Source: Vulcanimicrobiota bacterium (GTDB lineage Bacteria > Vulcanimicrobiota > Xenobia > Xenobiales > JADMJV01). From it: DNA of 64,000 nucleotides. The position numbers and the translations under genes are program-made. The notes under the pieces are model-generated. The model ran no database searches. It was not told where the DNA came from and saw only the letters and a list, made by a program, of their open reading frames with translations. Shown in pieces: positions 5,852-33,902 of the stretch; the stretch's first letter is position 1; every line of letters starts with the position of its first letter. The DNA lies in NCBI GenBank assembly GCA_050250895.1, contig JBFWNU010000001.1, positions 2,406,210 to 2,470,209 of the forward strand, written 5' to 3'.

Positions 5852-7138
5852 ATGGGGCTGCTGTGGCTGCTCGCCGGTGGCGTTCGGGCTGACGACTGGC
5901 ATTCCGTCGTTTTCGAGAGCAAACCCAACGGGGCCCAGATCGTGGACCTCTACGACAACGAGATTGGCCGCACGGGTGCCCCCTGCCGCTTGAATCTCGA
6001 TAATTTCAGCGAAGTGGTGGACCTCGAACTGCGTGCGCCCGGCTATCGGACTTTCGCCTTCTCGATGCGCAAGAGCAAGTTCTCGAAGGCCGAACGCTTG
6101 CCTGAAGAGGGCGCCTATGTGCTCGAGCCGGTCAGCCCCGGGGCCATGGTCGGGCTCTTCCTGCGGCGCTGGTGGTGGGTCTTGCTGGCCGGGGTGGCGG
6201 GGGCGACCCTGGCCGCGAGACGACATCTGACGGTGCGCGCCCGGGCGCGGCGGGAGCGGGCCCTCGAAACGCTCGAGGCCAGCGCCAACGGTTCTTTGGC
6301 CATGGCTCGGGTGGGAGGCTACGTCGTGGTCGACAAGTTGGGCGTAGGCGGCATGGCCAGCGTTTACCGGGCGGTGCCCGAGAAGGACCCCGAGCGAGGC
6401 CAGCCGGTGGCGATCAAGGTGCTTCACCGAGAGCTTTCCAGTGATCCAGACTATCGCGAACGGTTTTTGAGGGAAGTCAAGATCTGCGCGGGCCTCAACC
6501 ATCCCTCCATCGTGCGGCTGTATGACTGGGGCCAGTTTCAGCATGCGGGTCAGGAGCGGGATTACCTGGTCATGGAGATGGTCGAAGGTTGCTCTTTGCG
6601 CCAGAAGATGGCCTCCGAGGGCTTGCCGGCCAGTGAGGCGATGGCTTTCCTCGAGCCCATCTGCAAAGGGGTGCACTTCGCTAATTCGCGCGGAATTGTG
6701 CATCGCGACTTAAAACCCGAGAACATCATGGTCACCACGGCCGGGCGGGTCAAAGTGATGGACTTTGGTCTGGCCCGCAACCAGAACCTCGACCGCATCA
6801 CCAAGACCGGCGTCACCCTGGGCACCCCCGCCTATATGGCGCCCGAGCAGATTCGCGGTCAGGATCCCGAGGCCACCATCGACCAGTATGCGGTGGGTGT
6901 GCTCGCCTATGAACTGTTCACCGGTCGGCTACCCTTTCAGGACCAGGACCCTATCACGCTGATCTACCGTCATCTTGAAGAGGAGCCGCCGCCGCCTCGA
7001 CAGTTCAAACCAGACCTGGCCGAGAGCCTCAATCAGATCCTCTTGCAGATGCTCGAAAAAGATCCCGAGTTGCGTTTTCGCGACCTGGAGGAAGCCTTGC
7101 GAGCACTGCAGTCGGCAGTGGGGGTCGAAGTTGGTTGA
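5852..7138 (+). CDS. receptor-like Ser/Thr protein kinase (Hanks type): N-terminal signal peptide + PEGA-like extracytoplasmic domain, single TM, C-terminal kinase
   Basis: Signal peptide MGLLWLLAGGVRA; PEGA-like segment SKPNGAQIVDLYDNEIGRTGAPCRL; TM GLFLRRWWWVLLAGVAGATLAA. Kinase motifs: GVGGMASVY, AIK, HRDLKPEN, DFG, APE. Start chosen to leave room for divergent promoters; the 5732 ATG is the alternative. Confidence 0.75.
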   Translation: MGLLWLLAGGVRADDWHSVVFESKPNGAQIVDLYDNEIGRTGAPCRLNLDNFSEVVDLELRAPGYRTFAFSMRKSKFSKAERLPEEGAYVLEPVSPGAMVGLFLRRWWWVLLAGVAGATLAARRHLTVRARARRERALETLEASANGSLAMARVGGYVVVDKLGVGGMASVYRAVPEKDPERGQPVAIKVLHRELSSDPDYRERFLREVKICAGLNHPSIVRLYDWGQFQHAGQERDYLVMEMVEGCSLRQKMASEGLPASEAMAFLEPICKGVHFANSRGIVHRDLKPENIMVTTAGRVKVMDFGLARNQNLDRITKTGVTLGTPAYMAPEQIRGQDPEATIDQYAVGVLAYELFTGRLPFQDQDPITLIYRHLEEEPPPPRQFKPDLAESLNQILLQMLEKDPELRFRDLEEALRALQSAVGVEVG

Positions 7139-7139
7139 G

Positions 7140-8726
7140 ATGGCCGTCACCGACTCGGGCGCTCGTCGTCTTTTCGACAGCGCCTTGCGCTTTCTGGTCG
7201 AGGCCCTGAGAGCCGACCGAGCCCTGGTGCTCTATGGCGAGACCAACCTCGAAGTCAAGGCCGCCCATGGCTTCAATCCCCGCACCGCGCTGGTCGGCGG
7301 CCCCCTGAGCATGGCCTTGCTCGAGCGGGTCCGCAGCAGCGCCGCCCCGCTGATGTTGGCCGACGCCCGTCGAGATAAGACAGTGGGTGACCATTTGAGC
7401 GTTGAACTGTCGGGTCTGCGCTCGGTGGTGTGCGTGCCTTTGCTGGCGCCCCGGGGCGAGGTGGCGGGCCTGCTCTATGGCGACAGCGTCGAGCACAACA
7501 GCCTGTTCGGCAATGAGCAATTGAGCAAACTGGTCGATTTCGCCAGCCGGCTCGAACGGGCTCTCTTTTCGGGGCAGGCTCTCGAGTTGCCGGCCGCCCA
7601 AGCGCCAAAGCGCCGCAAGCGAGTCGAGGTGGCTCCTGCCTCGCCCGCCCAAGAGGTGGCGCGGCCCCTGGCGATGGGTGAGCCGTCCGGACTAGGGCTG
7701 CGCGACTCGAGCAACTTCTTCCGATCGTTGGGGCTGATGGTGCAGACCGGGCTACCGATTCATCGAGGCCTGGCTTTGTTGGCCGAACATCGCGACTTGC
7801 CGGCCCTGGCCGGCGTATCGGGCTTTCTACTCAACGACCTGCTCAAAGGCAAGAGCCTGTCGTCGAGCATGGAGCGACTGCCGGCTAGCTTTGCGCCCTT
7901 TGTGGTCCAGCTGGTTCGAGCGGGTGAGAATTCCGGCTCGCTGCCTCACGTGCTGGCCGCCCTGGCCGCCCACCAGGAGCGCTCGGAGCGGCTCACCCTG
8001 AAGCTTCGCAGCGCTCTCACCTATCCGGCCGCGGTGCTGGGGGTGACGCTAGTCCTGTTGGCGGTGGGCCCGCCTTATCTACTCAAGAGCCAGATTCAGC
8101 TGATTGAGGGTTCGGGGGTGGCCCTCGGTTGGCTGACCCAGGCTCTCATCCTGGCCTCGAAGATCGTGGTCTCGCCACTTTTCTGGGGGGTCGCCGTGGC
8201 CGGGCTGGTGGGGTTGGCGGTGGCCGCCCGGACCGGCTTGCGAAACCCCGACCAGCGGCGGCGTTTGGCCGTGATGGGGCTGAAGGTTCCCTTGCTCGGT
8301 TCAGTGTTGCGGTTGGCCGCCGTCAGCCGCTTCGCCAGCGCCCTATCGCTGCAACTCAAAGCGGGTGTGCTGTTGGCCGATGCCCTCGAACAGGCGGCCC
8401 AGGCGGCTGCTCACCCGCTCTTGCTCGAGCGGATGCCTGTGGTCTTGAGTCGCCTCAAGAACGGGGCCGGTCTGGCCGAATGTCTGGCGGAAGCCCAACT
8501 CTTTCCTCGCTCCTTCCTGGGTATCATCGAAGCGGCCGAGTCCACCGCCAGTGTGCCGGGCATGCTCGATTGGGTTCATCAGCACTACGAACTCGAAATC
8601 GATTCGGGACTATCAGCCCTAACGGCCGCCCTCGAGCCTCTGGTGTTGGGCCTGGTGGGCGGAGTGGTCGGCCTGACGGTGCTGGCCAGCATGGTGCCGG
8701 TGATCAAGATGCTGGAGGTGCTCTAG
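7140..8726 (+). CDS. GAF domain fused to a GspF/PilC-type (T2SS/T4P) inner-membrane platform protein
   Basis: Internal Met (MAVTDSGARR) 2 nt after the kinase stop. N-terminal GAF-like region (LVLYGETNLEVKAAHGF...VCVPLLAPRGEVAGLLYGDS). Two T2SSF repeats (FFRSLGLMVQTGLPIHRGLALL...GENSGSLPHVL; ...IIEAAESTASVPGMLDWV...) and the typical C-terminal TM (LVLGLVGGVVGLTVLASMVPVIKM). Confidence 0.75.
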   Translation: MAVTDSGARRLFDSALRFLVEALRADRALVLYGETNLEVKAAHGFNPRTALVGGPLSMALLERVRSSAAPLMLADARRDKTVGDHLSVELSGLRSVVCVPLLAPRGEVAGLLYGDSVEHNSLFGNEQLSKLVDFASRLERALFSGQALELPAAQAPKRRKRVEVAPASPAQEVARPLAMGEPSGLGLRDSSNFFRSLGLMVQTGLPIHRGLALLAEHRDLPALAGVSGFLLNDLLKGKSLSSSMERLPASFAPFVVQLVRAGENSGSLPHVLAALAAHQERSERLTLKLRSALTYPAAVLGVTLVLLAVGPPYLLKSQIQLIEGSGVALGWLTQALILASKIVVSPLFWGVAVAGLVGLAVAARTGLRNPDQRRRLAVMGLKVPLLGSVLRLAAVSRFASALSLQLKAGVLLADALEQAAQAAAHPLLLERMPVVLSRLKNGAGLAECLAEAQLFPRSFLGIIEAAESTASVPGMLDWVHQHYELEIDSGLSALTAALEPLVLGLVGGVVGLTVLASMVPVIKMLEVL

Positions 8727-10324
8727 TGAAACAGCGCGGCCTCAGTCTGGGCACGGTCATCCTGGTGGTGAGCTTGTTGGCGACCCTGGGGCTGACCCTG
8801 GCCGCCGCCAGCGTTTCTCACCTGCATCTGATGACCCGGGCCAGCAACGCCCGCCGGGCCGAGAGCGTGGCTCGTTCGACGGTGGCTCAGGCGGTCGAAC
8901 ACATCTTGAGTTCCGTCGATCAGCGCTACGGCACCGCCGGGGAGAGCCTCGAGGTAGAGTTTGCCAGTGGGGTCGGTTATCTCAGCTTCGATCCCGACGA
9001 AGCCCGCCGCCACGGACTGCCGCGGAGTTGGAACAACATCGAGTCAAGCACCTCTTTGACCACTCCCGAGTCGGTCGTAGTGCCGGGCGAGTCGATCTAT
9101 CTGGTGGCCAGCGGCACGGTGGGCGGGGTCACCCGGCGGGTCGAAGCCATCTATCACATGGGGTCGTTTCCCTATGCCCTGGCTGCGGCCGGACCCATCG
9201 TGGCCCGGGGCGGGCTGACCGTCTCGGGGCTGGGTGAGAACGACGGTGGCGGCGGCCTGCCACCGCGAATCGAGTTGGCTCCGGCCGATCTGCACTCGAA
9301 TGCGCCCGGAGCCAAAGCCATCGAATTGGGAGCCGACACCCATATCGGGGGAGACGTGCAGGCAGTGGGAGATGTCTTTCTCGATCCGGCCGCGCCGGCG
9401 GACTCGATCGAGATTCAGGGCGAACTGCGCCATCGCGCTTCGGTGGTGGCCCTGCCCGCCTTCGAGCCCGAGCACTACGACCCGTCGGTGCTGGGGCGTA
9501 GCTTCGAGCCTTTCGACGACTCGCCCTATAGCGGCGAACTAGAAGTAGAGGGAGTGGCTCGGGCCAATCACGGCCTCGAGGTCAACGGCGGTCTGAGCCT
9601 GGACTCTGCCCTGTTGTTTGTCGAGGGCGACCTGATCGTCAACGGTCCCCTCAAAGGCAAGGGCATCCTGGTGGTGACCGGCCGGACCGTCATTCGGGGA
9701 GGGGCCGATTTCCAGACCGGCAACAAGCTGGCCCTGATGAGCCAGGGGCCGGTGGAGATTTCGGGCAGCGGTCAGGCGGGCTCGTTCTTCCAGGGGATGA
9801 TTCACACCCACTCGAGCTTTCAAGCCGACCGCATTACCGTGGTCGGCTCGTTGATCGCGGCCGGCAACCAGGCCGATGTGGTCTCGCTGCGCGAAGTCCG
9901 CATCATCCGGCCCGAGGGCTCGGGGGCCGTCGAGGTGGCCCTGGGTGGCGGTACCAATCCCGCCGGTGATGTGGAAGTCAGTGCCAGTGTGGCCATGCCC
10001 GGGGGCTTCAGCCGCTTGCTCACCCTCAGAGGCAGGGTGAGCGGACAGGCCTTTCGCGGAATCTGGCTGGTGGACGGAACACCGGTGCTCGACGAGCCTC
10101 TGCGCATCGACAAACAGTTGGCCGAGACTCTGACCTACTTCATTTCACAGATACCAGAGCTACGCGGGGCCATTCGTCCCCGGGATGCGGCCGACCAGCT
10201 GGCCAATCAACTCATCAACGGAGGCCCCCAAAACACCGGTAATCCGGCCGTCGTGATGGCCGACCCCAGCCGGCTGCTCAGCCCGCTCGAGCGCATGCGG
10301 CTGCTGGTCTGGAGAACCCAATGA
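8726..10324 (+). CDS. PilX-like pseudopilin-related protein (large minor-pilin-like)
   Basis: GTG start overlapping the upstream stop by 1 nt. N-terminus VKQRGLSLGTVILVVSLLATLGLTLAAASV resembles the PilX N-terminal domain (no Glu+5). ~530 aa, Gly-rich beta-type repeats. Confidence 0.65.
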   Translation: MKQRGLSLGTVILVVSLLATLGLTLAAASVSHLHLMTRASNARRAESVARSTVAQAVEHILSSVDQRYGTAGESLEVEFASGVGYLSFDPDEARRHGLPRSWNNIESSTSLTTPESVVVPGESIYLVASGTVGGVTRRVEAIYHMGSFPYALAAAGPIVARGGLTVSGLGENDGGGGLPPRIELAPADLHSNAPGAKAIELGADTHIGGDVQAVGDVFLDPAAPADSIEIQGELRHRASVVALPAFEPEHYDPSVLGRSFEPFDDSPYSGELEVEGVARANHGLEVNGGLSLDSALLFVEGDLIVNGPLKGKGILVVTGRTVIRGGADFQTGNKLALMSQGPVEISGSGQAGSFFQGMIHTHSSFQADRITVVGSLIAAGNQADVVSLREVRIIRPEGSGAVEVALGGGTNPAGDVEVSASVAMPGGFSRLLTLRGRVSGQAFRGIWLVDGTPVLDEPLRIDKQLAETLTYFISQIPELRGAIRPRDAADQLANQLINGGPQNTGNPAVVMADPSRLLSPLERMRLLVWRTQ

Positions 10325-10707
10325 GGCGGCGCGGGCTGAGCTTGATCGAAACGGTGGTGGCGGCCGCCCTGGTCGGACTGGTCGTGCTGCTGGTCACCAA
10401 TCTGTTTCCCCTTTCCCTGACCGGCGTGCGCCAGCAAGAGCAGTATTTGCAGGCGGATCTACTGGCCGGCTCGGTGCTGGCCGATCAGCAGATGGTGCCC
10501 TTCGTGGAGTTGACACCGGGCGACCGCCAGGTGCTCGACCCGGTCGAAGTCGATGGGGTGGCCTATACCGCCACTGTCGAAATCGATAGGGTCTCGGGCA
10601 GCGACCCGGCCTATCTTAAAGCGGTGCGCGTGACCGTGAACTGGCAGTATCAAGCCCAGGCGCGACAGACGGTGGAGGAGGTCTGGGTCGATGCGGTCGG
10701 GCGTTAG
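10321..10707 (+). CDS. prepilin-type N-terminal cleavage/methylation domain pseudopilin (GspI/PilV-like)
   Basis: MRRRG|LSLIETVVAAALVGLVVLLV is a class III signal peptide with Glu at +5. ATGA overlap with the upstream gene. Confidence 0.75.
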   Translation: MRRRGLSLIETVVAAALVGLVVLLVTNLFPLSLTGVRQQEQYLQADLLAGSVLADQQMVPFVELTPGDRQVLDPVEVDGVAYTATVEIDRVSGSDPAYLKAVRVTVNWQYQAQARQTVEEVWVDAVGR

Positions 10708-11293
10708 GGCCTATACCCTGGTCGAGGTGCTGGTGGCAGCCTTTCTCATGAGCCTGTTGCTGACCGTGCTGTTTCAGGTGCTTTTTCCGCTGGTGCGAGC
10801 CTCTCACCGCAGCTACCGGCGCATCTCGATGCAAGAGGTGGGAGGTTTGGCTCTCGACCGCCTGGCCCGCCAGTTCGAGGCCACTCCGGCCGTGGGCGTC
10901 ACCCCGCCTCAGACAACGGCCCAGCAGGTAGTGCTGGCTCTTCATCCCATCGATTCGGTCTCGAGCAGCGGTCGCCAGTTCTATGCCGACCACCTCGAGG
11001 TGTTTCACTGGCGACGCGACAGCGGCCGCCTCATCCATGAAACCTGGACCGAGGCGGGCGTAGACCTCAGTCTCGAGCCACGCCGCCTGACCGCCATCGA
11101 ACTTCAGGCCGTTGTCGACAGCGACAACGGCAGCGAGCGGGTGCTGGCTCATGGAGTGACCAGCTTTGTGGTCGCCGCGGCTGGTAGCGGACCCGGCCTG
11201 GTATTGCCGCTCACGGTGACGCTCAAGCTCGAAGACCAGAGCGACAGGCTCGAACTGAGCCGGCGTCTTTACCTGATGAACTCTAGCCTCTAA
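10691..11293 (+). CDS. prepilin-type pseudopilin (GspJ/PilW-like)
   Basis: MRSGVRA|YTLVEVLVAAFLMSLLLTVLF with Glu at +5 and a hydrophobic helix. 17-nt overlap with the upstream gene. Confidence 0.65.
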   Translation: MRSGVRAYTLVEVLVAAFLMSLLLTVLFQVLFPLVRASHRSYRRISMQEVGGLALDRLARQFEATPAVGVTPPQTTAQQVVLALHPIDSVSSSGRQFYADHLEVFHWRRDSGRLIHETWTEAGVDLSLEPRRLTAIELQAVVDSDNGSERVLAHGVTSFVVAAAGSGPGLVLPLTVTLKLEDQSDRLELSRRLYLMNSSL

Positions 11294-11329: not shown

Positions 11330-14300
11330 ATGACTATGAATGTGCGTCGTCAACCTTTTAGCGTCAACACTGCGCCAGGAGTCACCCTCCAAGGCGAGAT
11401 GACGCTGCCTGCAGACCTCAAGCCGGGCGAGAAGCGTCCTGCCATCGTGCTGGTGGCCGGGTCGGGACCCAACGACCGGGACGAGACGATGCCTTCTGAC
11501 ATCACCGCCTCGGGCCGGCTCGAGAAGCCCTTCAAGACCATCGCCGACACTTTGAGCGACGCCGGCCTGATCGTGGTTCGCTACGACAAGCGCGGGGTCA
11601 ATGGGCCGCAAACCGGCGATACGGCCAATCTCGACCAGGCGCTCTGGCGCAAAACCACCGGCCAGGATTTCATCCAGGACGCTCAGGCGGTGCTCCACCA
11701 GGTGGGCCAGGACCCCAACGTGGCCAGCGTATCGGTGCTCGGCCACAGTGAAGGCACGCTGATAGCCGGGGCTCTGGCGGCCGCTGGCGCGCCCCTGGCC
11801 AGCCTGATCCTGATGGGGCTGGTGGCCCAGCCGTTCGGCCAGGTGGTGGTCCACCAGGTCGAGGGGCAGGAGAAAGCCTTTTTCGACGGTCTGCCGCGCC
11901 AGGCCGACGGCAGCGTGAAGGCCGAAGGCGACCTGGTCGCTCTCGACGCCGACCATAACGGCAAGCTCAGCTGGGACGAGATGCAGGGCACTTTCGCCAA
12001 ATCCATGCAAGAAAAGCTCGAGCAAGGGCCGGCCGACGAACTGTTGGGCAACAAGCCCATCGGCTGGTATCGCTCCTGGCTCGAGGCCCCCTCGAACCTC
12101 GAGCAGATGACCAAAGCCGCTCCCCACCTGGCCCAGGTTCCCATCCTGTTGATGGCCGGCGAGAACGATGTGCAAACCCCGCTGGCCTCAGAGGCGCTGC
12201 CAATGCAGGCCAAGCTGCATTCGCTGGGACTGGTCAGCCAGCTCAAGACCTATCCGGGCCTGGGTCATGTCTTTAGCCCCGACCGCGACGGCACGGCCAC
12301 CTTTGGACCGCTCGACCAGACCTTCGTCGACGATCTCAAGAATTGGGCCGTCAAAACGCTGCTACCCGACAAGCCCCAACCCATCGTGTTCGGGCCGCGC
12401 ACCTACACCTTTACACCGCCGGCCCTGGCCGAATCCGATCTGGCCCAGGCCCGTACTCAGCTAGGAACCACCAAGACCCTGCGTCGGGCCCTGCAGATGC
12501 AGCACAAATTTCTGGCTCGCACTCCCTTTCTCGAGATGCAAGACCAGCAGTTCGAGCCCACCTTGAAATGGCTGCAAGACAATCCATTCACCAAAGAGCT
12601 GCTGGCCCCCACGGCCCAGTTCGCTTTTTCGCTTTATCAGCGGGCCGACCGACTTCCCTATGATTCCAAAGACCAGACCCAAGAGGCCCCCGAGGTGGCT
12701 CGGGCCAGGGCTGACCGGGTTGGTCAACTGGTGGCGGACTGGCATCGCCAGGGTCTGTTTCAGGCCACCCTCGACGGGCAGGCGCTGACCACCGACCAAC
12801 TGGTCGAAACCCTCAAGACCGTCAATCCTGGGCTCGGCCCCGATGGCCTCGAGTTCGTGTCGAGCAAACCCGGAGGTGAGGCCCTCAAGCGCTTCTATCA
12901 CGGTGACACCAAGGCCCGGCGTCGCGAGGTCGACCAGCTCGAGAGTCAGGCCCGCCGCGACCCCAAGACCGGCCTGCGCTTCTTTCGCGAAGCCCGGGAC
13001 TCTTATCTTGCCAACCAGGACACGTCCATCTTTCGCGAGTTCGGCATCTTGCTCGAAGAAGCGTCGTCGCGTCCCGCGCTCTACGCCCAGTTCTCCCAGG
13101 CGGCTCCCGAGATTCTTGAGCTCTACACCGAGTGCGAGCGCTTCGGCCTGGCCGCCCCCGAGATGGCGGTCTCGATGCACGAGGTCAACCGAATTCTCTT
13201 CCCCGTGCCCCTGATGGCCCCAGAGGCTGTCACCGCCGACATGCTCTTGCCTTATTTCATCGGCCCCGACCGTTCCGACCGGGAACGAGCCGCCGATCTG
13301 ATCGAAGCCGTGTGGATGAAGCAGCCCGAGTCGGTAACTGCCAGCATGGACCAGATTATCGAGCATTCGCCGGCTACGCGTTGGGTCGACCATTCGCTGC
13401 TCGGGTCGCATCCCGAGGATGCCCTGCCCTGGGAGCTCGCCCGGGTGGCGGCCCAGCGCCACGGCTGGAAACCCCGCCCCGAACAGCAGGACTGGACGCA
13501 GGCCGTCCAGGCCCTCAAAGTCGAGCGCGATCCCAACCCCGAGCCGCTGGCCAGGGTGCAAGAGGCGATCGCCGCCCGCACCTCCCTTTCGCAGGGCCAG
13601 CTGCTCGAGCTGCATTCCACCCTCGAGCAACTGCGAGCCAACGACAAAGAGGCTGCCTGGCGGGGACACCTTTCGCGCCAGCTCGGCCAGGCCTGCCCCC
13701 TCGAGGATTCAGAAGTGAAGGCGGTCATGGATGGTCTGGCCTGGAGCAAGCTCAGCGACCCGGCCGCCCCGGTCGAACTCAAGGCTCAGTTCACTCTGGT
13801 CGACTCTCAGACCCGAGGCCGTCCGGCCTTGCGCCGTGAGTTTCTTGAGCACCTGGGCGATGGCAAGGTGGTGCTCGACGTCACTCAGCACGACTGGCGC
13901 TCGATGCGCGGCCTGACCGACGAGTGGTTCGAGCACAAGCTCGAGCCGGCCCTGAGGGCCGACAATCCGACCGAACTGGTGCGCCAGGCCGCCCAGTCGA
14001 TGGTGACCCTCAAAGAAGCTCATTCCCACCAGTTCACCATGGTCTACACTCAGATTCAGCGTTACTGGGACGGCAAGCTGGCCGAGCTCGGCATCGACCG
14101 GGGCCTGCTGCGCGCCCACGCCGTCAATGTCAAAGAAGAGATCGCGGTGCTGGCCACCGTGGTAGCCGGTGCTCCCCAGACGGTGACCACGCGTCTGGAG
14201 CAGTACAACCACATGCGCGAGAGTTTGCCCGATCTAAAAACCGAAGAGGCCGACCGGGTCTTCGCCGAGTTGCAGGCTCATCCCGACGGTTTCGACCAGG

Positions 14301-14707
14301 GCCTCAAAGCCACCATCACCGAGGCCGACGTGCGCAAGACGCGGATGATCAAGCTGAAGGCTCGCATCCCCGGCCTGAGCGAGCCGCAGGCCGAGAAGTT
14401 GCTGGAGCAAGCCGTCCATCACCCCGACGGCTGGGACAAAGGCCTCGACGCAGCCGCGGCCGCCGCCGACCAGCGTCGCCAGCACATGTCGCAGTTGCTC
14501 GACCTGATGCCGACCCTTAACCGGCAAAAGGCCGAAGAGATGCTAGACCAGGCCGAGAACCATCCTGACGGCTGGGAGGCCGGCCTGGCTCAGGTTCTGC
14601 GCGGTGAGGTCGTCGGCGCTCCGGCCCAGCCGCCGACCCCGGCCGAGCTGTTGCTGGGCGAAGACTTTCTCAAGATTGGCGACATCGAAATCGGCATCCA
14701 GGACTAG
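11330..14707 (+). CDS. 1125-aa alpha/beta-hydrolase-fold protein with canonical EF-hand loop and long helical C-terminal region carrying three HPDG(F/W)DxGL repeats
   Basis: GHSEG (GxSxG nucleophile elbow); later Asp (GENDVQTP) and His (GLGHVF) candidates. EF-hand loop DADHNGKLSWDE (11944-11979). Repeats AHPDGFDQGL / HHPDGWDKGL / NHPDGWEAGL spaced ~46 aa apart (14270-14600). No N-terminal signal peptide. Confidence 0.7.
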   Translation: MTMNVRRQPFSVNTAPGVTLQGEMTLPADLKPGEKRPAIVLVAGSGPNDRDETMPSDITASGRLEKPFKTIADTLSDAGLIVVRYDKRGVNGPQTGDTANLDQALWRKTTGQDFIQDAQAVLHQVGQDPNVASVSVLGHSEGTLIAGALAAAGAPLASLILMGLVAQPFGQVVVHQVEGQEKAFFDGLPRQADGSVKAEGDLVALDADHNGKLSWDEMQGTFAKSMQEKLEQGPADELLGNKPIGWYRSWLEAPSNLEQMTKAAPHLAQVPILLMAGENDVQTPLASEALPMQAKLHSLGLVSQLKTYPGLGHVFSPDRDGTATFGPLDQTFVDDLKNWAVKTLLPDKPQPIVFGPRTYTFTPPALAESDLAQARTQLGTTKTLRRALQMQHKFLARTPFLEMQDQQFEPTLKWLQDNPFTKELLAPTAQFAFSLYQRADRLPYDSKDQTQEAPEVARARADRVGQLVADWHRQGLFQATLDGQALTTDQLVETLKTVNPGLGPDGLEFVSSKPGGEALKRFYHGDTKARRREVDQLESQARRDPKTGLRFFREARDSYLANQDTSIFREFGILLEEASSRPALYAQFSQAAPEILELYTECERFGLAAPEMAVSMHEVNRILFPVPLMAPEAVTADMLLPYFIGPDRSDRERAADLIEAVWMKQPESVTASMDQIIEHSPATRWVDHSLLGSHPEDALPWELARVAAQRHGWKPRPEQQDWTQAVQALKVERDPNPEPLARVQEAIAARTSLSQGQLLELHSTLEQLRANDKEAAWRGHLSRQLGQACPLEDSEVKAVMDGLAWSKLSDPAAPVELKAQFTLVDSQTRGRPALRREFLEHLGDGKVVLDVTQHDWRSMRGLTDEWFEHKLEPALRADNPTELVRQAAQSMVTLKEAHSHQFTMVYTQIQRYWDGKLAELGIDRGLLRAHAVNVKEEIAVLATVVAGAPQTVTTRLEQYNHMRESLPDLKTEEADRVFAELQAHPDGFDQGLKATITEADVRKTRMIKLKARIPGLSEPQAEKLLEQAVHHPDGWDKGLDAAAAAADQRRQHMSQLLDLMPTLNRQKAEEMLDQAENHPDGWEAGLAQVLRGEVVGAPAQPPTPAELLLGEDFLKIGDIEIGIQD

Positions 14708-16418: not shown

Positions 16419-16434
16419 GGTGATCGGTGTCACG
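16419..16434. promoter_or_regulatory. CRP/FNR-like palindromic site GGTGA-N6-TCACG, conserved upstream of cassette copies A and C
   Basis: ggtgatcggtgtcacg matches the TGTGA-N6-TCACA architecture at 4/5 + 4/5. An identical 16-mer occurs at 24228-24243. Confidence 0.4.
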
Positions 16435-16603
16435 CGGCAAAAGGAGTAGAGATAGCTACATGTCGCAGTCTAGATGTACCATTGGTTCGCAGAACGTGTA
16501 TTTTGTTGGTTGTATGGGTGTCCAAAGTTTGAAAAATAGTAAACAGAGGTTTTGTGTGGGGGGTAAAGAAGCACTGGGTTCGAGCATCCTTGGGGAGGTG
16601 GTC

Positions 16604-19600
16604 TTGGTTCGAGCGTCTCGTTTCTTTCTTCTTTTGCTGGGCTTGCTTTTGGTTGGCTGTGAATCCGGCCAACTGGTGGATGAGATCGAAAGAGGGCAAT
16701 CTCGGCCAATCTCCCATCGAAATCGTGTGTTGGCCGAATTGACTCTGCAAACCGAGAATGGCCCCTACAAGCTTGTGAAGGGGAGGGGGCTCATTCCGGC
16801 CGAAAATAGCCCGGTGCCCCAACCGCGTACGGGGGATGGCGTTCGCGCCAGAACCGGCGAGAGCATTCTGGCCGCGACTGAGCTGCCCCCGGAGTATTTT
16901 TTCGGAGCCCACTATCAGTTCGATGTGGACAAACGCAACTTCTTCATCGGCGAGGAGCCGGTAGGGACGGCCTGTGTTCGCTACAATAGCGAAGAATTCA
17001 ATAATCTTCCCCACAGCAGCGAAGCCTATCGCTTTGGCAACCTGGAGTTCGCTAGCCTGGGGGTGGCTGTCGGGCCTAACCAGTTTCCAGGCACCGCCTC
17101 GACCACCATGGTGGTGAGCACGCCCGCCGGGATTGAAGAGATCGAGATCCCTAAGATGGACGGCGACACAATCACCGTTTCACCACCAATCACCGTTCGG
17201 ATGGACTATGCCTACACCCCCATCCCCAATTCTAGCCTCTACTATGGGCGAACCGAGACGTTCGTCAACGGAAACTCGGTAGCGATCAGTTCTTCAAACT
17301 TCACCATTGGCGTGAGCGTCGAGCTGCCCTCGGTGCATGGGATCTATACTACCGAAAATCACGCCGAGCGACAGACCTATGCCAACGCGCCTTTCCAGCT
17401 TCAGGACAGCTTTGACGTGGGCAGTCAGGTCTTTGCTCGCAAGTTGGAGTTTGCAGATGACTTCACTCCGATGGAGTTCACGCCGGGCCAACCAGTGACG
17501 ATCACCAACAGCTTCCGCTGGGACTCCGGCCCAACTGATGTCGTCGATGCCCGGTGGGAGGTCATCGTCGAAGACACCCTGGAGAATCAGTTTACGAGAT
17601 TTCAAGAAGGCACCGGGACCGACATTTCGGCCACCTTCGACCTGTCTGATGTTTTGGCTCGCGGCCAGGTGCCCCGGCGTTACGTTCTCATCCCTGCCGG
17701 CAGCCCACTCGAGGCCAGTATCAAGCAGGAGCAGGCACGGTTGCGAGCTCGAGGCGAGGACATTCGCGCCCAGACGGACGTGATACCCCTGACCTATCGG
17801 GTCATCGCGAGCGCCGAGGCCTATCCTCGTAGCCGCGTCTTTCCGCTGGTCGGCTCGCAGTTTTATCAGGCACGCTACTACGCGGTGAATAGCCAGATCT
17901 CACCGGCCTTGCGCATCCGCGACATCAACATTGATCCCAACCCGTTCGAGCCCAGCCCCCCGGAGGTGGCCCCCGAAGACCGTCAGGTGGCCGTCATCTC
18001 GGCCTACGTCGACGCCAATGGCTTCGACGGTGGCTATGTGTTGGTCGAGCCTCGAATCTATGACCAGGCCGGCAACCTGGTGAAGACGTTCGAGGACCAG
18101 TATCCCATCGACTACGTCGAGTTGGAATGGGACGGCTATGACGATGAGGGAAACCCACTTGACCCGCAGGAGTTTCTGGTGGAGCTGCAAGCCCACGTCT
18201 GCGATTTCAGCGGACCGGCTCGCGAGATCTTGGCCGAGATTGCGCCCCAGACTCTGCAATTGGGTAGTTGTTCTCTGACGGGGGATGTCGCCCAGGCGCC
18301 CTTAGTGACCGGAGGGGCCCAGGGCGGTGAACTCAAGGTCTATGCAATCAACAAATTGATCGCCTGGGGTAAGAATCCGACCAGTGCTATCGTGACTAGA
18401 GCTCAGGAGGGCTTTCTGCGGGATGTCTATGCCGCTGGTCCTACGGCCCCGGGTGATCCCCAGCCCGCAAAGCTGAAATTGGAAGCCAGCAACCTCGGGC
18501 CGGTTGGAGGTGACGTTACTGTCGTCGCACGCGGGAATGTGAGCCAGGTGGACTCAGTAGCCGTCACACTAACAGACGACGACCACGACGGAACTTACAC
18601 GGGTGAGTTGTTGTTGACACCAGATTTCATTAAGGTCGGCGGGCCACTCACGGATGTGCAGGGTGAAGCGGGACGGATGACCTTCAGTGTCGGCGAGCGG
18701 CTCAACAATGAGGGTGGAGTTACCGCCGCGATCTTTGCCAACCTTCTCTCCGCCCTCGGTCCCGAATTCTACCCTTACCCCAAGCCCGCGATTTCTCTAG
18801 GCAAATTCGAAGAAGATTTGCTCGGGAGCCAGCTCACTCTCGCCAATGACGATGAGGCCACCGCCACGGCAAACAACCTGGCCAGTACTGGCTTTGAGGC
18901 GCTAACCCTAACGCTCAGGGTAGGAAGCGATGTGGTGGTTACAACCAAGGCCAAGGTTCGCCATCCCGCTGATGTTCTATTCTGGAATTTCCATGGTCTA
19001 CGCCACGGCTCACTCAGCCCCGAAAGCGAGATTGCCAAGAGAGAGAACCGGCTTCCTACGATACTCCTCACGCCCGAAGACTTTGTAGTGAAGCCGGTCG
19101 CAAGAACCGTAATGTTTGCCGCTTGCGATGTGCTGTGCCTGAACGACTACAACGGTGCGTGGCCCAACGAGTCGAACTTTGGCGGACGCCGCTGGTATGC
19201 CGCGATGGACACCCCGGGACACAACACAGTCTTGCTAGGATTCACGGCCCAGACAGGTGCAACTCTTACAACCTCTGAGGTCATCGAACTCTACGGAAAA
19301 AGGATTGATGACTATATCGCGGCGGGCGAAACGGACAGGAGAAAGATTCAGGCGCTGGCCTGGGTTAGGGCGAATCTCGAGGTTGGTCTCAACCTTCAAG
19401 CCGACGGCTCAACGGGTCCTGTGGATGCACTAAGAAGCCTGCAACTTCGTGCTTGCGCCTATGCAGCCGATAGCACGGGAGAGTACTTTTACTACATCCC
19501 TGTGCAGCATCGGCCCACTCAGGACCTTGCTCTGGTCTTGCAGAACGTCGAGACCACACCCGTGGTCAAAACTGCCGAGGGCATCTACAGAGTGCGCCGC

Positions 19601-19705
19601 GAGCATTGGGGTGAACCGGTCCTTTTCGACGTTAGGAGGCCAAAAGATGCACAACTTGTACTCGAAGTGGTGCGACACAACGATGGGACGGTGGAATTGC
19701 GATGA
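16604..19705 (+). CDS. large secreted lipoprotein (cassette A gene 1) with FlgD-Ig-like domain
   Basis: TTG start 5 nt after GGAGG. Lipoprotein signal MVRASRFFLLLLGLLLVGC (lipobox LVGC). FlgD-Ig-like block IRDINIDPNPFEPSP...YVLVEPRIYDQAGNLVKTFEDQYP...ELEWDGYDDEGNPLDPQEF. About 1033 aa; the start is inferred from conservation with copy C. Confidence 0.65.
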   Translation: MVRASRFFLLLLGLLLVGCESGQLVDEIERGQSRPISHRNRVLAELTLQTENGPYKLVKGRGLIPAENSPVPQPRTGDGVRARTGESILAATELPPEYFFGAHYQFDVDKRNFFIGEEPVGTACVRYNSEEFNNLPHSSEAYRFGNLEFASLGVAVGPNQFPGTASTTMVVSTPAGIEEIEIPKMDGDTITVSPPITVRMDYAYTPIPNSSLYYGRTETFVNGNSVAISSSNFTIGVSVELPSVHGIYTTENHAERQTYANAPFQLQDSFDVGSQVFARKLEFADDFTPMEFTPGQPVTITNSFRWDSGPTDVVDARWEVIVEDTLENQFTRFQEGTGTDISATFDLSDVLARGQVPRRYVLIPAGSPLEASIKQEQARLRARGEDIRAQTDVIPLTYRVIASAEAYPRSRVFPLVGSQFYQARYYAVNSQISPALRIRDINIDPNPFEPSPPEVAPEDRQVAVISAYVDANGFDGGYVLVEPRIYDQAGNLVKTFEDQYPIDYVELEWDGYDDEGNPLDPQEFLVELQAHVCDFSGPAREILAEIAPQTLQLGSCSLTGDVAQAPLVTGGAQGGELKVYAINKLIAWGKNPTSAIVTRAQEGFLRDVYAAGPTAPGDPQPAKLKLEASNLGPVGGDVTVVARGNVSQVDSVAVTLTDDDHDGTYTGELLLTPDFIKVGGPLTDVQGEAGRMTFSVGERLNNEGGVTAAIFANLLSALGPEFYPYPKPAISLGKFEEDLLGSQLTLANDDEATATANNLASTGFEALTLTLRVGSDVVVTTKAKVRHPADVLFWNFHGLRHGSLSPESEIAKRENRLPTILLTPEDFVVKPVARTVMFAACDVLCLNDYNGAWPNESNFGGRRWYAAMDTPGHNTVLLGFTAQTGATLTTSEVIELYGKRIDDYIAAGETDRRKIQALAWVRANLEVGLNLQADGSTGPVDALRSLQLRACAYAADSTGEYFYYIPVQHRPTQDLALVLQNVETTPVVKTAEGIYRVRREHWGEPVLFDVRRPKDAQLVLEVVRHNDGTVELR

Positions 19706-21555
19706 AAACGAAGATCGGGATGGTGACATTGACGCTTTGCCTTCTAAGCGGGGTCTGGGCTCAGGAGCCAGAGTTCCCGGCAGCGGACCCCGTGCGCCGC
19801 GCGATTCAGAGTTATGAACTACATGATTTGGATCGTGCCCTGGCCGAGTTCCTGGCCCTTGCAGAGAGTCATCGGGGAACTCCGGTGGGCTCAAATTGTC
19901 TCTTCTGGGCGTCAGATACTGCTCTACTCGCGGGGGACCAGGAGCAGGCACTGGCCATCCTTAACCGCATCACGCAAGAATACGCTGGCACTCACATGGA
20001 GCTTTCGGCAAGGCTGCGGCTCATTGAGCTTGTGCCTCCGAGCACTGGAGACGGAGCGACAGAAGCTTACGACGAACTCGCACAGCAGAATGGGGCACCT
20101 CCCCTTGCGGTGTTGATTGACCCGGCCCGGAAACTAGAGAACACGATCGCAATCCGGGCGTTGCCAGAAGAGTCGAGGAAGGGTCTCAGGTTGCTATACG
20201 TGACAGTCCTTGGCGAATTGAGTTTTCATCCCCCGCAGGAGGCCGCTGTCCTCGGGCAGGTTTTGCGGGGAGCGTTGGACCGTGATGGCGGCGCCGAGTT
20301 CTACGGCTCGTTGTATAACACCGCGAGGCGTTCACACGAGCGACGCCATCTCTGGTCGCCCACTCAGGAAGACTTTCAGAATCCCGTCGTGTCGCCTCTG
20401 AACCCTAGCGATGGTAGCACTGTCGCCCCAGGCGGAATGCTAGAGGCCCAGCTTTACATGGAAGACTTCTATGCTATGGGATTGGATCTGGCTACGCTGC
20501 GTGTTTCTCTGGACGGTCAGGATGTTACCGATTCTTCCACTTTCGAGTGTTCGGCCGGCCCGGAGTTCGTAGACGGGCAACCCTGGGAGGTGATTACCGT
20601 CCGCTCGCCCATGGCGAACCTATCGAACGGAACACACACGGCCACCGTTACCTGTCAGGTATACCTCTATCCGGGCCAGGGCCCGGGGCTGACGACGAAG
20701 ACCTGGTCGTTCACTATCGCCAATCAGGCCTCTGAGGCAGCGCTCTATCCATCGAAGGACTCGACCCTCCGACTCCGCGACCCCCATCTCAACGAGGGAG
20801 CCAACCCTAGACTCATCCTGGAGAAGATCCAGGGTAAGACCACTCACGCCCTGGTGGGCTTTGACCTGTCCCAACAGAACCTGACCGGCCTGACTTCGGC
20901 CAGCCTGGTCTTCACCATCGACCCCAGCGACTCTCCCACCGGCTGGGGCAATGGGCGCAACGTCCTCGCAGCCCCGATCTCGACCGGCTGGCTGGAGGGG
21001 AACGGCGTCGACTTCGGCGTGCCCAACGCGCAGAAGACCAGCGGGTCCGGCCCGGGCGTGACCTGGTTCAGTCCTGTCGATGAAGACATCAGCAACAACT
21101 ATGCCAACTCGGCCGTGAATTGGAACGGGGCCGGTGCGGCCAGCGGCCCTCCGACAGCCTTGGCGGTGCAAATCCATAACCATCAAACCGGAGAGGTCTC
21201 CTTCGATGTCACCCAGGATGTCCTCAACGGATCCTCGAGCTGGTTGGTGAGAAGAGAGGACGAGAACGTCGGCTCGCAAGTCCACTTCTACTCCAGGGAA
21301 GGTGGCGGAGCCTCAGCCGGCCCGCGCCTGGTCCTTCACTACGGTGCCTCGGCCAACAAACCCGCAGGAGACGCTCTGTTGGCCAGGGCCTGGGACACCC
21401 CGGTCGCGGTCCTTCGCAATCTCGCCGGGCTCGGGCTGTCGGGTGGCCCGATGACAAACTTGCTGATCCTGCAAGCCCGTTCGTCGGGCCTCGACATCCT
21501 GAGTGCGGGATTGCGCAGTCTGGTCGCCCGGCGCGAGATGGCCCTGCTCCTTTAG
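19702..21555 (+). CDS. secreted protein with TPR-like N-terminal region and DNRLRE-like C-terminal domain (cassette A gene 2)
   Basis: Signal peptide MKTKIGMVTLTLCLLSGVWAQ; ATGA overlap with gene 1. C-terminal pattern SKDSTLRLRDPHLNEGANPRLIL...ALVGFDLS...SASLVFTID...GWGNGRNV fits the DNRLRE/CBM96-like signature (D-x-T-L...N-x-G...L-x-L...F-D-L-S...A-S-L). Confidence 0.7.
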   Translation: MKTKIGMVTLTLCLLSGVWAQEPEFPAADPVRRAIQSYELHDLDRALAEFLALAESHRGTPVGSNCLFWASDTALLAGDQEQALAILNRITQEYAGTHMELSARLRLIELVPPSTGDGATEAYDELAQQNGAPPLAVLIDPARKLENTIAIRALPEESRKGLRLLYVTVLGELSFHPPQEAAVLGQVLRGALDRDGGAEFYGSLYNTARRSHERRHLWSPTQEDFQNPVVSPLNPSDGSTVAPGGMLEAQLYMEDFYAMGLDLATLRVSLDGQDVTDSSTFECSAGPEFVDGQPWEVITVRSPMANLSNGTHTATVTCQVYLYPGQGPGLTTKTWSFTIANQASEAALYPSKDSTLRLRDPHLNEGANPRLILEKIQGKTTHALVGFDLSQQNLTGLTSASLVFTIDPSDSPTGWGNGRNVLAAPISTGWLEGNGVDFGVPNAQKTSGSGPGVTWFSPVDEDISNNYANSAVNWNGAGAASGPPTALAVQIHNHQTGEVSFDVTQDVLNGSSSWLVRREDENVGSQVHFYSREGGGASAGPRLVLHYGASANKPAGDALLARAWDTPVAVLRNLAGLGLSGGPMTNLLILQARSSGLDILSAGLRSLVARREMALLL

Positions 21556-21739: not shown

Positions 21740-22330
21740 GTTTGCCGCTTGCGATGTGCTGTGCCTGAACGACTACAACGGTGCGTGGCCCAACGAGTCG
21801 AACTTTGGCGGACGCCGCTGGTATGCCGCGATGGACACCCCGGGACACAACACAGTCTTGCTAGGATTCACGGCCCAGACAGGTGCAACTCTTACAACTT
21901 CTGAGGTCATCGAACGCTACGGGAAATGGATTGACGACTATATTGCGGCGGGCGAAACGGCAGGAGAAAGATTCAGGCGCTGGCCTGGGTTAGGGCGAAC
22001 CTCGAGGTTGGTCTCAACCTTCAACCCGACGGCTCAACGGGCCCTGTGGATGCACTAAGAAGCCTGCAACTTCGCGCTTGCGCTTATGCAGCCGACAGCA
22101 CGGGAGAGTATTTCTACTACATCCCTGTGAAACACGAGCCTACCAAAGACCTGGACCTGATTCTCCAGAATGTGGAGACTACTCCGAGAGTCAAGACCGC
22201 CGAGGGCATCTATAGAGTGAGCCGCGAACATTGGGGTGACCCGGTCCTTTTCGACCTTAGGAGGCCCAAAGATGCGCAACTTGTACTCGAGGTGGTGCGA
22301 TACGACGATGGGACGGTGGAATTGCGATGA
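21740..22330 (+). pseudogene. 3' fragment of a cassette gene-1 copy (duplicate of 19114-19705), frameshifted
   Basis: First ~180 nt identical to 19114 onward, then ~90% identity. A 1-nt deletion (aacggcaggag vs aacggacaggag) splits it into two ORFs (21756..22058, 22046..22330). No 5' part or signal peptide. Confidence 0.7.
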
Positions 22331-24078
22331 AAACAAAGATCGGGATGGTGACATTGACGCTTTGCCTTCTAAGCGTGGCCTGGGCCCAGGAGCCAGAGTT
22401 TCCAGAAACAGACCCTGTGCGCCACGCTATTCAGAGTTACGAGTTGCATCAGTGGGATCGTGCCCTGGCCGAGTTCCTGGCCCTCGCAGAGAGTCATCGG
22501 GGAACGCCGGAGGGCTCAAACTGTCTCTTTTGGGCGTCAGATGTCGCTTTGCTCGCGGGGGACGAGGCGCAATCGTTGGCTATCCTCAACCGCATCGCGC
22601 AAGAATACGCCAGCACCAACATGGGACTCTTGGCGAGGCTCCGTCTCATTGAGCGGACATCCCCGAACTCCAGAGAAGAAAGGGTCGCTGCCTACGACCA
22701 ACTCGCCCAAGCGAAAGGCGCGCCTTCTCTCGCCATCTTGATCGACCCGGCCCGGAAAGTGGAAAACATGATGAAAATCCGGTCATTGCCAAGGGAATCC
22801 AGAAACGGTCTCAGGATGCTCTACGCGAGAGTCGTTGACGAATTGGGTTTTCACCCCCCGCAGGAGGCCGCTGTCCTCGGGCAGGTCTTGCGGGGAGCGT
22901 TGGACCGTGATGGCGGCGCCGAGTTCTATGTCTCGTTGTATGACGCGGCGAGGAACTCACACGAGTTGAGGGGTCTCTGGTCGCCCACTCAGGAAGACTT
23001 TCAGAATCCCGTCGTGGCGCCACTAAACCCTAGCGATGGTAGCACTGTCGCCCCAGGCGGAATGCTAGAGGCACAGCTTTACATGGAAGACTTCTATGCT
23101 ATGGGATTGGATCTGGCTACGCTGCGTGTTTCTCTGGACGGTCAGGATGTCACCAATTCTTCGACTTTCGAGTGTTCGGCCGGCCCGGAGTTCGTAGACG
23201 GGCAACCCTGGGAGGTGGTTACCGTTCGCTCGCCCATGGCGAACCTGTCGAACGGAACACACACGGCCACCGTTACCTGTCAGGTATACCTCTATCCAGG
23301 CCAGGGCCCCGGCATCACAACGAAGACATGGTCGTTCACTATCGCCAATCAGGCCTCTGAGGCAGCGCTCTATCCATCGAAGGACTCGACCCTCCGCCTA
23401 CGCGACCCCCATCTCAACGAAGGCGCGAACCCTCGGCTCATCCTGGAGAAGATCCAGGGCAAGACCACTCGTGCTCTGGTGGGCTTTGACATGTCCCAAC
23501 AGAATTTGACCGGCCTGACTTCGGCCAGCCTGGTCCTCACCGTCGACCCCAGCGACTCTCCCACCGGCTGGGGCAACGGGCGTAACGTCCTCGCGGCTCC
23601 GATTTCCACCGGCTGGCTGGAGGGGAACGGCGTCGACTTCGGCGTGCCCAACGCGCAGAAGACCAGCGGGTCCGGCCCGGGCGTGACCTGGTTCAGTCCT
23701 GTCGATGAAGACATCAGCAACAACTATGCCAACTCGGCCGTGAATTGGAACGGGGCCGGTGCGGCCAGCGGCCCTCCGACAGCCTTGGCGGTGCAAATCC
23801 ATAACCATCAAACCGGAGAGGTCTCCTTCGATGTCACCCAGGATGTCCTCAACGGATCCTCGAGCTGGTTGGTGAGAAGAGAGGACGAGAACGTCGGCTC
23901 GCAAGTCCACTTCTACTCCAGGGAAGGTGGCGGAGCCTCAGCCGGCCCGCGCCTGGTCCTTCACTACGGCGCCTCGGCCAACAAACCCGCAAAAGACGCT
24001 CTGTTGGCCAGGGCCTGGGACACCCCGGCCGCGGTCCTTCGCAATCTTGCCGGGCTCGGGGGACTGGTGGCCCGATGA
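22327..24078 (+). CDS. cassette B gene 2: secreted TPR-like/DNRLRE-like protein, C-terminally truncated by a frameshift
   Basis: N-terminus ~85% identical to 19702..21555; C-terminal domain nearly identical. A 1-nt deletion near 24058 (ctcgggggactgg vs ctcgggctgtcgggtgg) gives an early stop; the homologous stop is at 24176-24178. Confidence 0.65.
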   Translation: MKTKIGMVTLTLCLLSVAWAQEPEFPETDPVRHAIQSYELHQWDRALAEFLALAESHRGTPEGSNCLFWASDVALLAGDEAQSLAILNRIAQEYASTNMGLLARLRLIERTSPNSREERVAAYDQLAQAKGAPSLAILIDPARKVENMMKIRSLPRESRNGLRMLYARVVDELGFHPPQEAAVLGQVLRGALDRDGGAEFYVSLYDAARNSHELRGLWSPTQEDFQNPVVAPLNPSDGSTVAPGGMLEAQLYMEDFYAMGLDLATLRVSLDGQDVTNSSTFECSAGPEFVDGQPWEVVTVRSPMANLSNGTHTATVTCQVYLYPGQGPGITTKTWSFTIANQASEAALYPSKDSTLRLRDPHLNEGANPRLILEKIQGKTTRALVGFDMSQQNLTGLTSASLVLTVDPSDSPTGWGNGRNVLAAPISTGWLEGNGVDFGVPNAQKTSGSGPGVTWFSPVDEDISNNYANSAVNWNGAGAASGPPTALAVQIHNHQTGEVSFDVTQDVLNGSSSWLVRREDENVGSQVHFYSREGGGASAGPRLVLHYGASANKPAKDALLARAWDTPAAVLRNLAGLGGLVAR

Positions 24079-24227
24079 CAACCTTGCTGATCCTGCAAGC
24101 CCGTTCTTCGGGCCTCGACATCCTGAGTGCGGGATTGCGCAGTCTGGTCGCCCGGCGCGAGATGGCCCTGCTCCTTTAGGATTCTCGGATTTGACAATCC
24201 GGCCGAACGCCGGGCTGCACGATGCCC

Positions 24228-29212: not shown

Positions 29213-29265
29213 AAGCCCGAGCAACCCTGACAGGGCTCGAACAAGCCCTCGCAGAACCGTTTCAA

Positions 29266-33812: not shown

Positions 33813-33902
33813 GGTCGGCTTGAGAAACGCCCGGTGCCCAACCGGGCGTTCTCGTTTCTCTGTCTGAAAGGCGAGGGGCGGTCTGGTATTGAATTCTATT
33901 CA

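Follow-up and report, generated by a model that had tools for sequence, protein, structure and literature searches.

The 64,000-nucleotide window analysed here (contig JBFWNU010000001.1 of a Vulcanimicrobiota bacterium) encodes a 528-residue pilus/secretion platform protein of the PilC/GspF type (7140-8726, + strand) that carries a GAF domain at its N-terminus. Its gene, here called GAF-PilC, is the second of a five-gene cassette, in the order Ser/Thr kinase, GAF-PilC, 532-residue protein, 128-residue prepilin and 200-residue prepilin, the ends of which abut or overlap. The cassette appears to be undescribed in the literature searched. We tentatively favour, at a probability a little short of even, a composite model in which the cassette is a signal-gated accessory platform and priming module, where the GAF domain is regulatory, the kinase provides the input and the motor is borrowed.

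GAF domain and platform core

The translated reading frame contains both motifs quoted in an earlier note on this DNA, which was made from the sequence alone. A TTG codon at 6975 offers an alternative start. However, methionine occupies the first column in 60 of the 69 sequences of the family alignment, and the upstream kinase gene ends with a TGA at 7136-7138; the ATG at 7140 is thus taken as the real start. NCBI holds an identical protein, on a contig of 3.95 Mb.

Pfam detects a GAF domain between residues 10 and 142 (32.8 bits, cut-off 22.4) and GAF_3 (30.0 bits, cut-off 27), both above threshold, and two stretches of T2SSF (PF00482; 139.8 bits, cut-off 25.2), the first of which spans residues 193-308. 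Three hydrophobic transmembrane (TM) segments can be read from the sequence. An AlphaFold2 (AF2) model based on a four-sequence alignment left the N-terminus unresolved, with a predicted local distance difference test score (pLDDT) of 24-55 in the GAF region. It was superseded by a model based on the 69-sequence family alignment, which is confident (mean pLDDT 91.9, predicted template modelling score 0.72). In this model residues ~5-144 (7152-7571, +) form a helix, two strands, a helix, a strand, a helix, two strands and a long helix, a layout that we read as GAF-type. A Foldseek comparison with the PDB matches it to solved GAF domains (3eea, DosS GAF-A, TePixJ, Lcd1 and PDE2A), with target template modelling scores of 0.55-0.71. 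The earlier note had proposed that an otherwise canonical GspF/PilC protein begins with a GAF fold. Pfam, AF2 and Foldseek agree on this, the modelled N-terminus being GAF-type and not a divergent GspF N-domain, and the GAF assignment is secure. The two T2SSF repeats and the terminal TM segment, which the note had placed behind the GAF domain, are seen in the two Pfam stretches, in the alignment to PilC and in the AF2 helices.

The linker that follows (residues ~145-186; 7572-7697, +) is rich in proline, alanine and arginine. It has no secondary structure in the model, where the pLDDT block means are 52-60 across residues 151-180, and it appears to be disordered. Its length varies across the family, and the corresponding alignment columns are gap-rich and variable. 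Prolines that look conserved in the linker probably owe this to alignment artefacts in a proline-rich segment.

From residue 187 onward the model is all-helical. The first T2SSF repeat forms the Cyto1 helical bundle and continues into TM1 (residues ~187-308; 7698-8063, +). The second repeat, Cyto2, and the terminal TM3 are placed at approximately residues 398-520 (8331-8699, +), with a boundary estimated by analogy; the model has helices at residues 386-469 and 472-527. The core has the topology Cyto1-TM1-TM2-Cyto2-TM3 and can be aligned end to end with characterised PilC: residues 184-524 align in sequence with residues 74-412 of Myxococcus xanthus PilC. The sequence of the crystallised Cyto1 of Vibrio cholerae EpsF aligns with residues 184-292, and the NCBIfam models of GspF, PilC and HofC align from about their position 58-69 to the end, that of ComGB from position 3. 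These three sets of alignments indicate that the first large cytoplasmic domain, Cyto1, is intact. Upon superposition with Foldseek, Cyto1 fits the crystal structures of EpsF, OutF and PilC with template modelling scores of 0.86-0.94. The protein scores far below the NCBIfam equivalog cut-offs for GspF (TIGR02120; 191 against 424), PilC (NF052606/7; 177 against 700), HofC (158 against 401) and ComGB (89 against 240). GAF-PilC nevertheless belongs to the T2SSF platform superfamily.

The two T2SSF repeats, the core alignment and the Cyto1 fold are therefore the same as in M. xanthus PilC, V. cholerae EpsF and Klebsiella oxytoca PulF, whereas the N-domain of ~55 residues in those proteins is matched here by a GAF domain of 140 residues. 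T2SSF_N (PF28597), which folds as beta-beta-alpha-beta, is found in the precomputed Pfam annotation of two GAF-less relatives (P0004 and P0005) and not in that of GAF-PilC. As judged from the alignments, the GAF domain and the ~40-residue linker take exactly the position of the small N-domain, which they replace. The statement in the earlier note that the N-terminal cytoplasmic domain had been replaced holds if it is taken to mean the small peripheral N-domain (residues 1-54 of PulF; T2SSF_N). It fails if the first large cytoplasmic domain is meant.

The note had also raised the question of whether other GAF-T2SSF fusions exist, and the architecture proves to be a populated family rather than a singular event. 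An exhaustive hidden Markov model search of 1.84 billion cluster representatives was made with a profile that covers the GAF domain, the linker and the first T2SSF repeat; 263 proteins reached E <= 1e-30. Among the best 150 of these 263 representatives, a GAF-only profile places a GAF domain N-terminal to T2SSF in 78, so that at least 78 clusters (at 50% identity) have the GAF-T2SSF architecture. Most of the 78 fusions are 480-680 residues long. A few shorter ones are probably partial, a few have additional sequence at the N-terminus and one has two GAF domains. Pfam finds T2SSF in all 69 aligned fusions, GAF in 56 and GAF_2 in 35. Family members are 27-41% identical to the window protein in pairwise comparison, which argues that the family is old. 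The named hosts are metagenome-assembled genomes of Eremiobacterota/Vulcanimicrobiota and Armatimonadota, and where databases give names, these do not go beyond "T2SS F family protein", "PilC" or "PulF". Among the GTDB representatives, searched with a four-sequence query, there is one full-length relative (locus L003), on a contig binned as Burkholderiales, which may be a binning error. A full-text literature search found no description of a GAF-PilC/GspF fusion.

Within the GAF domain, residues R27, G44, S57, S87, C98, P100, G110, Y113 and D115 are invariant or nearly invariant in the family, and D75, S95 and F123 are kept at 80-85% (D75 at 80%). S57, S87, P100 and D115 remain invariant when stand-alone GAF homologues of 151 residues are added to the alignment. 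The presence of the conserved polar residues in these unfused homologues suggests that they line a binding pocket rather than serve as phospho-acceptors.

Stand-alone GAF proteins of this kind (P0007-P0012, 140-184 residues; L002 8001-8456) are 33-39% identical to the fused GAF domain. L002, the one long contig among them, has no pilus or kinase genes near the GAF gene and encodes a large Tubulin_2 protein. The fused domain may have been donated by the lineage of these stand-alone proteins.

These residues bear on the possibility that the GAF domain is mainly a small-molecule receptor (for cyclic AMP or cyclic GMP, haem or a tetrapyrrole) which gates the platform directly, the kinase being a separate or secondary input. 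We regard this as possible, though somewhat unlikely. It is consistent with the true GAF fold and with the polar set R27, S57, S87, Y113, D115 and D75, shared with the stand-alone proteins as expected for a pocket. It is also consistent with a profile search in which the closest solved GAF domains are those of PDE5A (E 1.4e-8) and PDE2A (4.4e-6), then PDE10A, the resemblance being to the generic core only; a PDB search with the single GAF-region sequence gave no match. The matched parts, chain residues 139-195 of PDE5A and 35-157 of PDE2A, are both assigned to GAF-A. An S-x-L-C-x-P strand and the G-x-hairpin after it are common to the query and these phosphodiesterases (S-[IV]-L-C-[MV]-P and vvGv in the comparison with PDE5A), at an identity of ~15-20% in structure alignments, and the conserved C98 sits in strand beta4, as in PDE5 GAF domains, and not in a helix. 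However, the NKFDE motif of GAF domains that bind cyclic nucleoside monophosphates (cNMP) is not conserved; the family alignment reads Y113-A-D115 ... F123-x3-[D/H/E]-L. In the model the beta3-beta4 segment comprises only ~20 residues, which would be short for a bilin or haem pocket. The ligand classes put forward in the earlier note (cNMP, haem, tetrapyrrole) have no positive support.

The five-gene cassette

The window was compared with ten further independent loci (L001, L003, L014-L020 and L021/L022), each viewed with 10 kb on either side. A Pkinase gene and pilin-like genes stand beside the GAF-T2SSF gene in 11 of the 11 independent loci. In tblastn searches with the five window proteins, all five are found at 26-47% identity in L001, L003, L014, L015, L016 and L017, while one pilin is missed in L018 and in L020 and two in L019. 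The flanking genes differ between all cassette loci. The kinase gene lies upstream of the GAF-PilC gene in the window and in L001, L003, L014-L017, L020 and L021, usually immediately upstream and often with a 4-nucleotide overlap. This overlap is present in L001, L003, L017, L020 and L021, and in the window the two genes are 1 nucleotide apart. Two kinases are encoded in each of L014, L018 and L020.

In L014 (5298-9472 and 13739-15064), from an Armatimonadota genome, two genes are inserted around that of the Ser/Thr kinase, one for a PAS histidine kinase and one for a response regulator of the GerE type. A second cassette-type kinase follows the pilins, and a gene for a low-molecular-weight phosphatase (LMWPc) lies nearby. 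The signalling part of the module seems to be more elaborate in this locus.

The window kinase (5852-7138, +) is a receptor-type Hanks Ser/Thr kinase according to its Pkinase match, its motifs and an alignment with its paralogue. The longest open reading frame begins at 5732 and has 468 residues, of which residues 197-450 match Pkinase in Pfam with 171.9 bits. The form starting at ATG 5732 has 40 additional residues without counterpart in the orthologues, which are 425-450 residues long. These lengths and the public gene call make ATG 5852 (428 residues) the likely start, with which the N-terminus of the kinase becomes a signal peptide (MGLLWLLAGGVRA/DD). The chain then continues from this signal peptide or TM segment through a PEGA-like ectodomain of ~80 residues and a TM segment to the cytoplasmic kinase domain. 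The HRDLKPEN, DFG and APE motifs are invariant in seven cassette kinases, all of which have an N-terminal hydrophobic segment, a domain of ~80 residues with the motif T-x-PPGA-x-I, a second hydrophobic segment and basic residues. The predicted topology of the cassette kinases is that of receptor kinases, their kinase domain being cytoplasmic. In the ectodomain of the window kinase PEGA is not detected by Pfam. An in-genome paralogue has a PEGA match above threshold (25.7 against 20.8 bits); its alignment to the window kinase is colinear from the signal peptide on, through the ectodomain, at 39% identity.

The kinase domain matches PD-T4-6 and mad6 of PADLOC strongly and MAD6/PglW of NCBIfam weakly, as might be expected if the cassette were no filament module at all and the kinase belonged to anti-phage defence of the PD-T4-6 type. 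However, the PADLOC matches are confined to the generic Hanks kinase domain (residues ~190-465), and the other four cassette proteins have no PADLOC match. The five genes are intact and their order is kept across phyla between different flanks, which speaks equally against the platform gene being a decaying paralogue adjacent to the others by chance, as does the confident and canonical platform core in the AF2 model. Either explanation is very improbable.

All three proteins encoded downstream of GAF-PilC begin with class-III-type signals. The first (8726-10324, +; 532 residues; signal KQRG/LSLGT) has no Glu5 and resembles GspK in its size and signal type. The second (10321-10707, +; 128 residues; RRG/LSLIE) is a small GspI-like prepilin with an N_methyl score of 19.4 bits, just under the cut-off. 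The third (10691-11293, +; 200 residues; RA/YTLVE) is GspJ-like by size and has an N_methyl score of 22.1 bits (cut-off 21.2). Glu5 is kept in the two smaller proteins, and the pattern of two proteins with Glu5 and a large one without it is seen in 8-9 loci. Orthologues of the large protein in 10 loci are 32-43% identical to it; they share G/x-x-L-G-T and never have Glu5. In the cassettes the large protein is 530-620 residues long and apparently beta-solenoid-like, with a weak FapA match in L003; the window protein has no match in Pfam or NCBIfam.

The trio is reminiscent of the GspI-GspJ-GspK tip complex and of PilV/W/X, where there are likewise Glu5 prepilins of ~125 and ~200 residues and one large protein without Glu5. 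The large cassette protein is, however, much bigger than GspK and without a family match, and the 128-residue protein matches GspI (17.0 bits against 44.35) and XpsI (18.7 against 150) only weakly, below cut-off. The likeness to a GspK/I/J (or PilX/V/W) priming complex is therefore one of resemblance and not of membership. The Verru_Chthon cassette (TIGR02598 etc.) was considered as another relative and rejected, the 128-residue pilin scoring 21.3 bits against a cut-off of 51.4.

The genome carries two GAF-PilC cassettes. The second, paralogous one lies on the same 3.95-Mb contig (L021 8727-14188; also contained in L022) and encodes a PEGA-kinase of 425 residues and a GAF-T2SSF protein of 523 residues (P0024), 35% identical to the window protein. 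Its pilin trio (205, 122 and 551 residues) is inverted and on the opposite strand. The Armatimonadota assembly GCA_016199555.1 apparently also has two cassettes (L014 and L017).

Upstream of the second cassette, at a distance of about 3.5 kb, there is a gene for a 304-residue protein (L021 5553-6467, +, the same gene as L022 1001-1915) that combines T2SSF_N (PF28597) with ankyrin repeats; the repeats are confirmed by Pfam and T2SSF_N is taken from precomputed annotation only. This protein would be the platform N-domain as a free-standing module, near a platform that lacks it. An ankyrin protein is also encoded near the L014 cassette (18473-19348), with no T2SSF_N on record.

Possible control of the platform

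The Walker-A motif of GspE/PilB, G[PS]TGSGK[ST], was not found in the 64-kb window or in L001-L020, and no match to T2SSE of Pfam occurs in the scanned open reading frames or in the gene tables of the loci. A motif scan gave no prepilin peptidase motif GGGD[VIAL]K. The locus gene tables list no secretin, peptidase or major-pilin family, no dedicated search having been run for secretins and major pilins. The absence of an ATPase motif and of a major-pilin-like gene from the cassette suggests that it borrows its motor and bulk pilin from elsewhere.

According to the composite model, a putative core pilus locus elsewhere in the genome would supply the motor and the bulk pilin, while the cassette would supply an alternative platform and its own priming complex. 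The GAF domain would hang in the cytoplasm beside the surfaces of Cyto1 and Cyto2 where the hexameric ATPase docks, and its state would decide whether the GAF-PilC platform engages the motor. The PEGA-like ectodomain of the kinase would sense an extracytoplasmic cue and the kinase would then set the state of the GAF domain, the simplest way being phosphorylation of the GAF-linker region. The conserved polar pocket of the GAF domain may provide a second input through a small ligand from the cytoplasm.

The function of the N-domain in canonical platform proteins is unknown (PMC10790770). In PulF it is peripheral, attached by a flexible loop and dispensable, including for oligomerisation, and it is needed for full activity (PMC10790770). 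Loss of PilT suppresses a mutant in the N-domain of PilG, and the N2D of the ATPase hexamer is the docking site of Cyto1 and Cyto2 (PMC10790770). By analogy with these canonical systems, in which the N-domain influences the efficiency of assembly and the balance of extension and retraction and adjoins the ATPase-docking domains (PMC10790770), a domain in this position could plausibly modulate the coupling between motor and platform.

Several points weigh against this model. The note had derived a phosphorylation input from translational coupling to the upstream kinase. The association itself stands, with a Ser/Thr kinase beside GAF-T2SSF in all 11 loci and often a 4-nucleotide overlap, while the phosphorylation of GAF-PilC by the kinase is inferred solely from synteny. 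In L018 and L019 the kinase gene lies downstream of the pilin genes, and in L014 a response regulator separates the kinase gene from that of GAF-PilC, so that tight translational coupling is not universal. The invariant serines of the GAF domain are also invariant in the stand-alone GAF proteins, one of which (P0008) is encoded in a locus without pilus or kinase genes; this argues for pocket or structural residues and not for phosphosites. The family alignment shows no conserved phospho-acceptor threonine in the linker. The absence of the ATPase applies to the window and to the 10 kb on either side of the other loci only, and the GspK/I/J assignment is based on size, order and signal type, the sequence matches lying below cut-off.

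For many GAF domains no ligand is known, and they serve as dimerisation modules. The GAF domain could accordingly stand in for the N-domain as a passive structural element that does not switch in response to a signal, and function in oligomerisation, at the membrane or in the docking of a partner. The kinase would then have other targets, for example the pilins, the ATPase or some transcription factor. The dispensability of the canonical N-domain, whose function is unknown (PMC10790770), and the lack of a conserved phospho-acceptor in the linker are compatible with such a passive role, and the T2SSF_N-ankyrin protein near the second cassette shows that an N-domain can be a portable docking module. 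A passive role nevertheless seems improbable, given that the GAF domain, the kinase and the pilin trio stay together at ~30-40% identity in 11 loci and that polar residues outside the GAF core are strongly conserved.

A more specific form of the composite model, rather doubtful as it stands, is that the cassette is a plug-in: an external cue sensed by the PEGA-ectodomain kinase, a cytoplasmic ligand in the GAF pocket, or both, would license the GAF-tipped platform to dock the shared ATPase, and the GspK/I/J-like pilins would nucleate a distinct filament. If this were true, it would be the first sensory input wired directly into a PilC/GspF platform and would make platform switching a regulatory principle. 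Several cassettes per genome would then let different cues call different filaments.

The nearest known systems differ in where the sensor is placed. The MshEN/GSPII N-terminal domain and regulators of the PilZ and FimX type exert cyclic di-GMP control over pilus and secretion ATPases. As in MshEN/GSPII, the cassette has a sensory domain on a cytoplasmic core component of a type IV filament machine, which would gate assembly; the sensor is on the ATPase there, whereas here it is on the platform and of a different domain class (GAF). The PpkA-PppA-Fha1 pathway is a threonine phosphorylation pathway of the H1-T6SS of Pseudomonas aeruginosa, and the M. xanthus kinase MasK reportedly interacts with type IV pilus proteins. 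Common to PpkA, MasK and the cassette is a membrane-spanning Hanks kinase with an extracytoplasmic domain that is encoded with a membrane nanomachine and, in the cassette putatively, activates it post-translationally. In contrast to the PpkA pathway, the cassette has no FHA-domain protein, a phosphatase (LMWPc) is encoded only near the L014 cassette, and the class of machine is different. The cassette also differs from PilC/GspF/PulF systems in that its platform gene has no adjacent ATPase gene and stands beside a Ser/Thr kinase in all loci examined. None of these analogues, MshEN, PpkA-Fha1 or MasK, places a sensor domain on the platform itself.

The platform protein has been treated as a passive coupling element with an N-domain of unknown function. 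The deep conservation of a GAF domain in the N-domain position, together with the receptor kinase and the pilin trio, points to a regulatory port on the platform, and the cassette would offer a natural system for studying how the engagement of platform and motor is controlled. It is also a candidate surface- or signal-responsive pilus module for Eremiobacterota and Armatimonadota, which are poorly studied phyla. Type IV pili and phototaxis are known from the only isolate of Eremiobacterota (PMC9758169).

Neighbouring genes in the window

A 115-residue PilZ-domain protein (42.6 bits) is encoded at 1789-2136 on the minus strand, about 3.7 kb upstream of the cassette. PilZ-domain genes are also found near the cassettes in L014 (244 residues) and L015 (295 residues). 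These neighbours may indicate a link to cyclic di-GMP, or they may be there by chance.

Directly downstream of the cassette, at 11330-14707 (+), there is a gene for a protein of 1125 residues with an N-terminal alpha/beta-hydrolase domain (Hydrolase_4/Peptidase_S9). It was considered as a part of the module and rejected, since the genes after the cassettes of L015 and L016 show no similarity to it; it is thus probably unrelated to the module.

The window contains a near-tandem duplication of ~2.45 kb with 91% identity (19114-21555 and 21740-24179), which spans the 3' end of the reading frame 16427-19705 and the TPR-containing reading frames 19702-21555 and 22327-24078. At 28404-29401 the segment recurs a third time, in part (~1 kb, 93.6% identity). 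A short tandem repeat at 1355-1601 consists of three units of ~83 bp, 94-96% identical, between or overlapping small reading frames. Lastly, the gene at 33834-35003 (+) encodes a 389-residue protein that matches MATCAP of Pfam (microtubule-associated tyrosine carboxypeptidase family) with 172.6 bits, a bacterial member of a family named for a eukaryotic enzyme.

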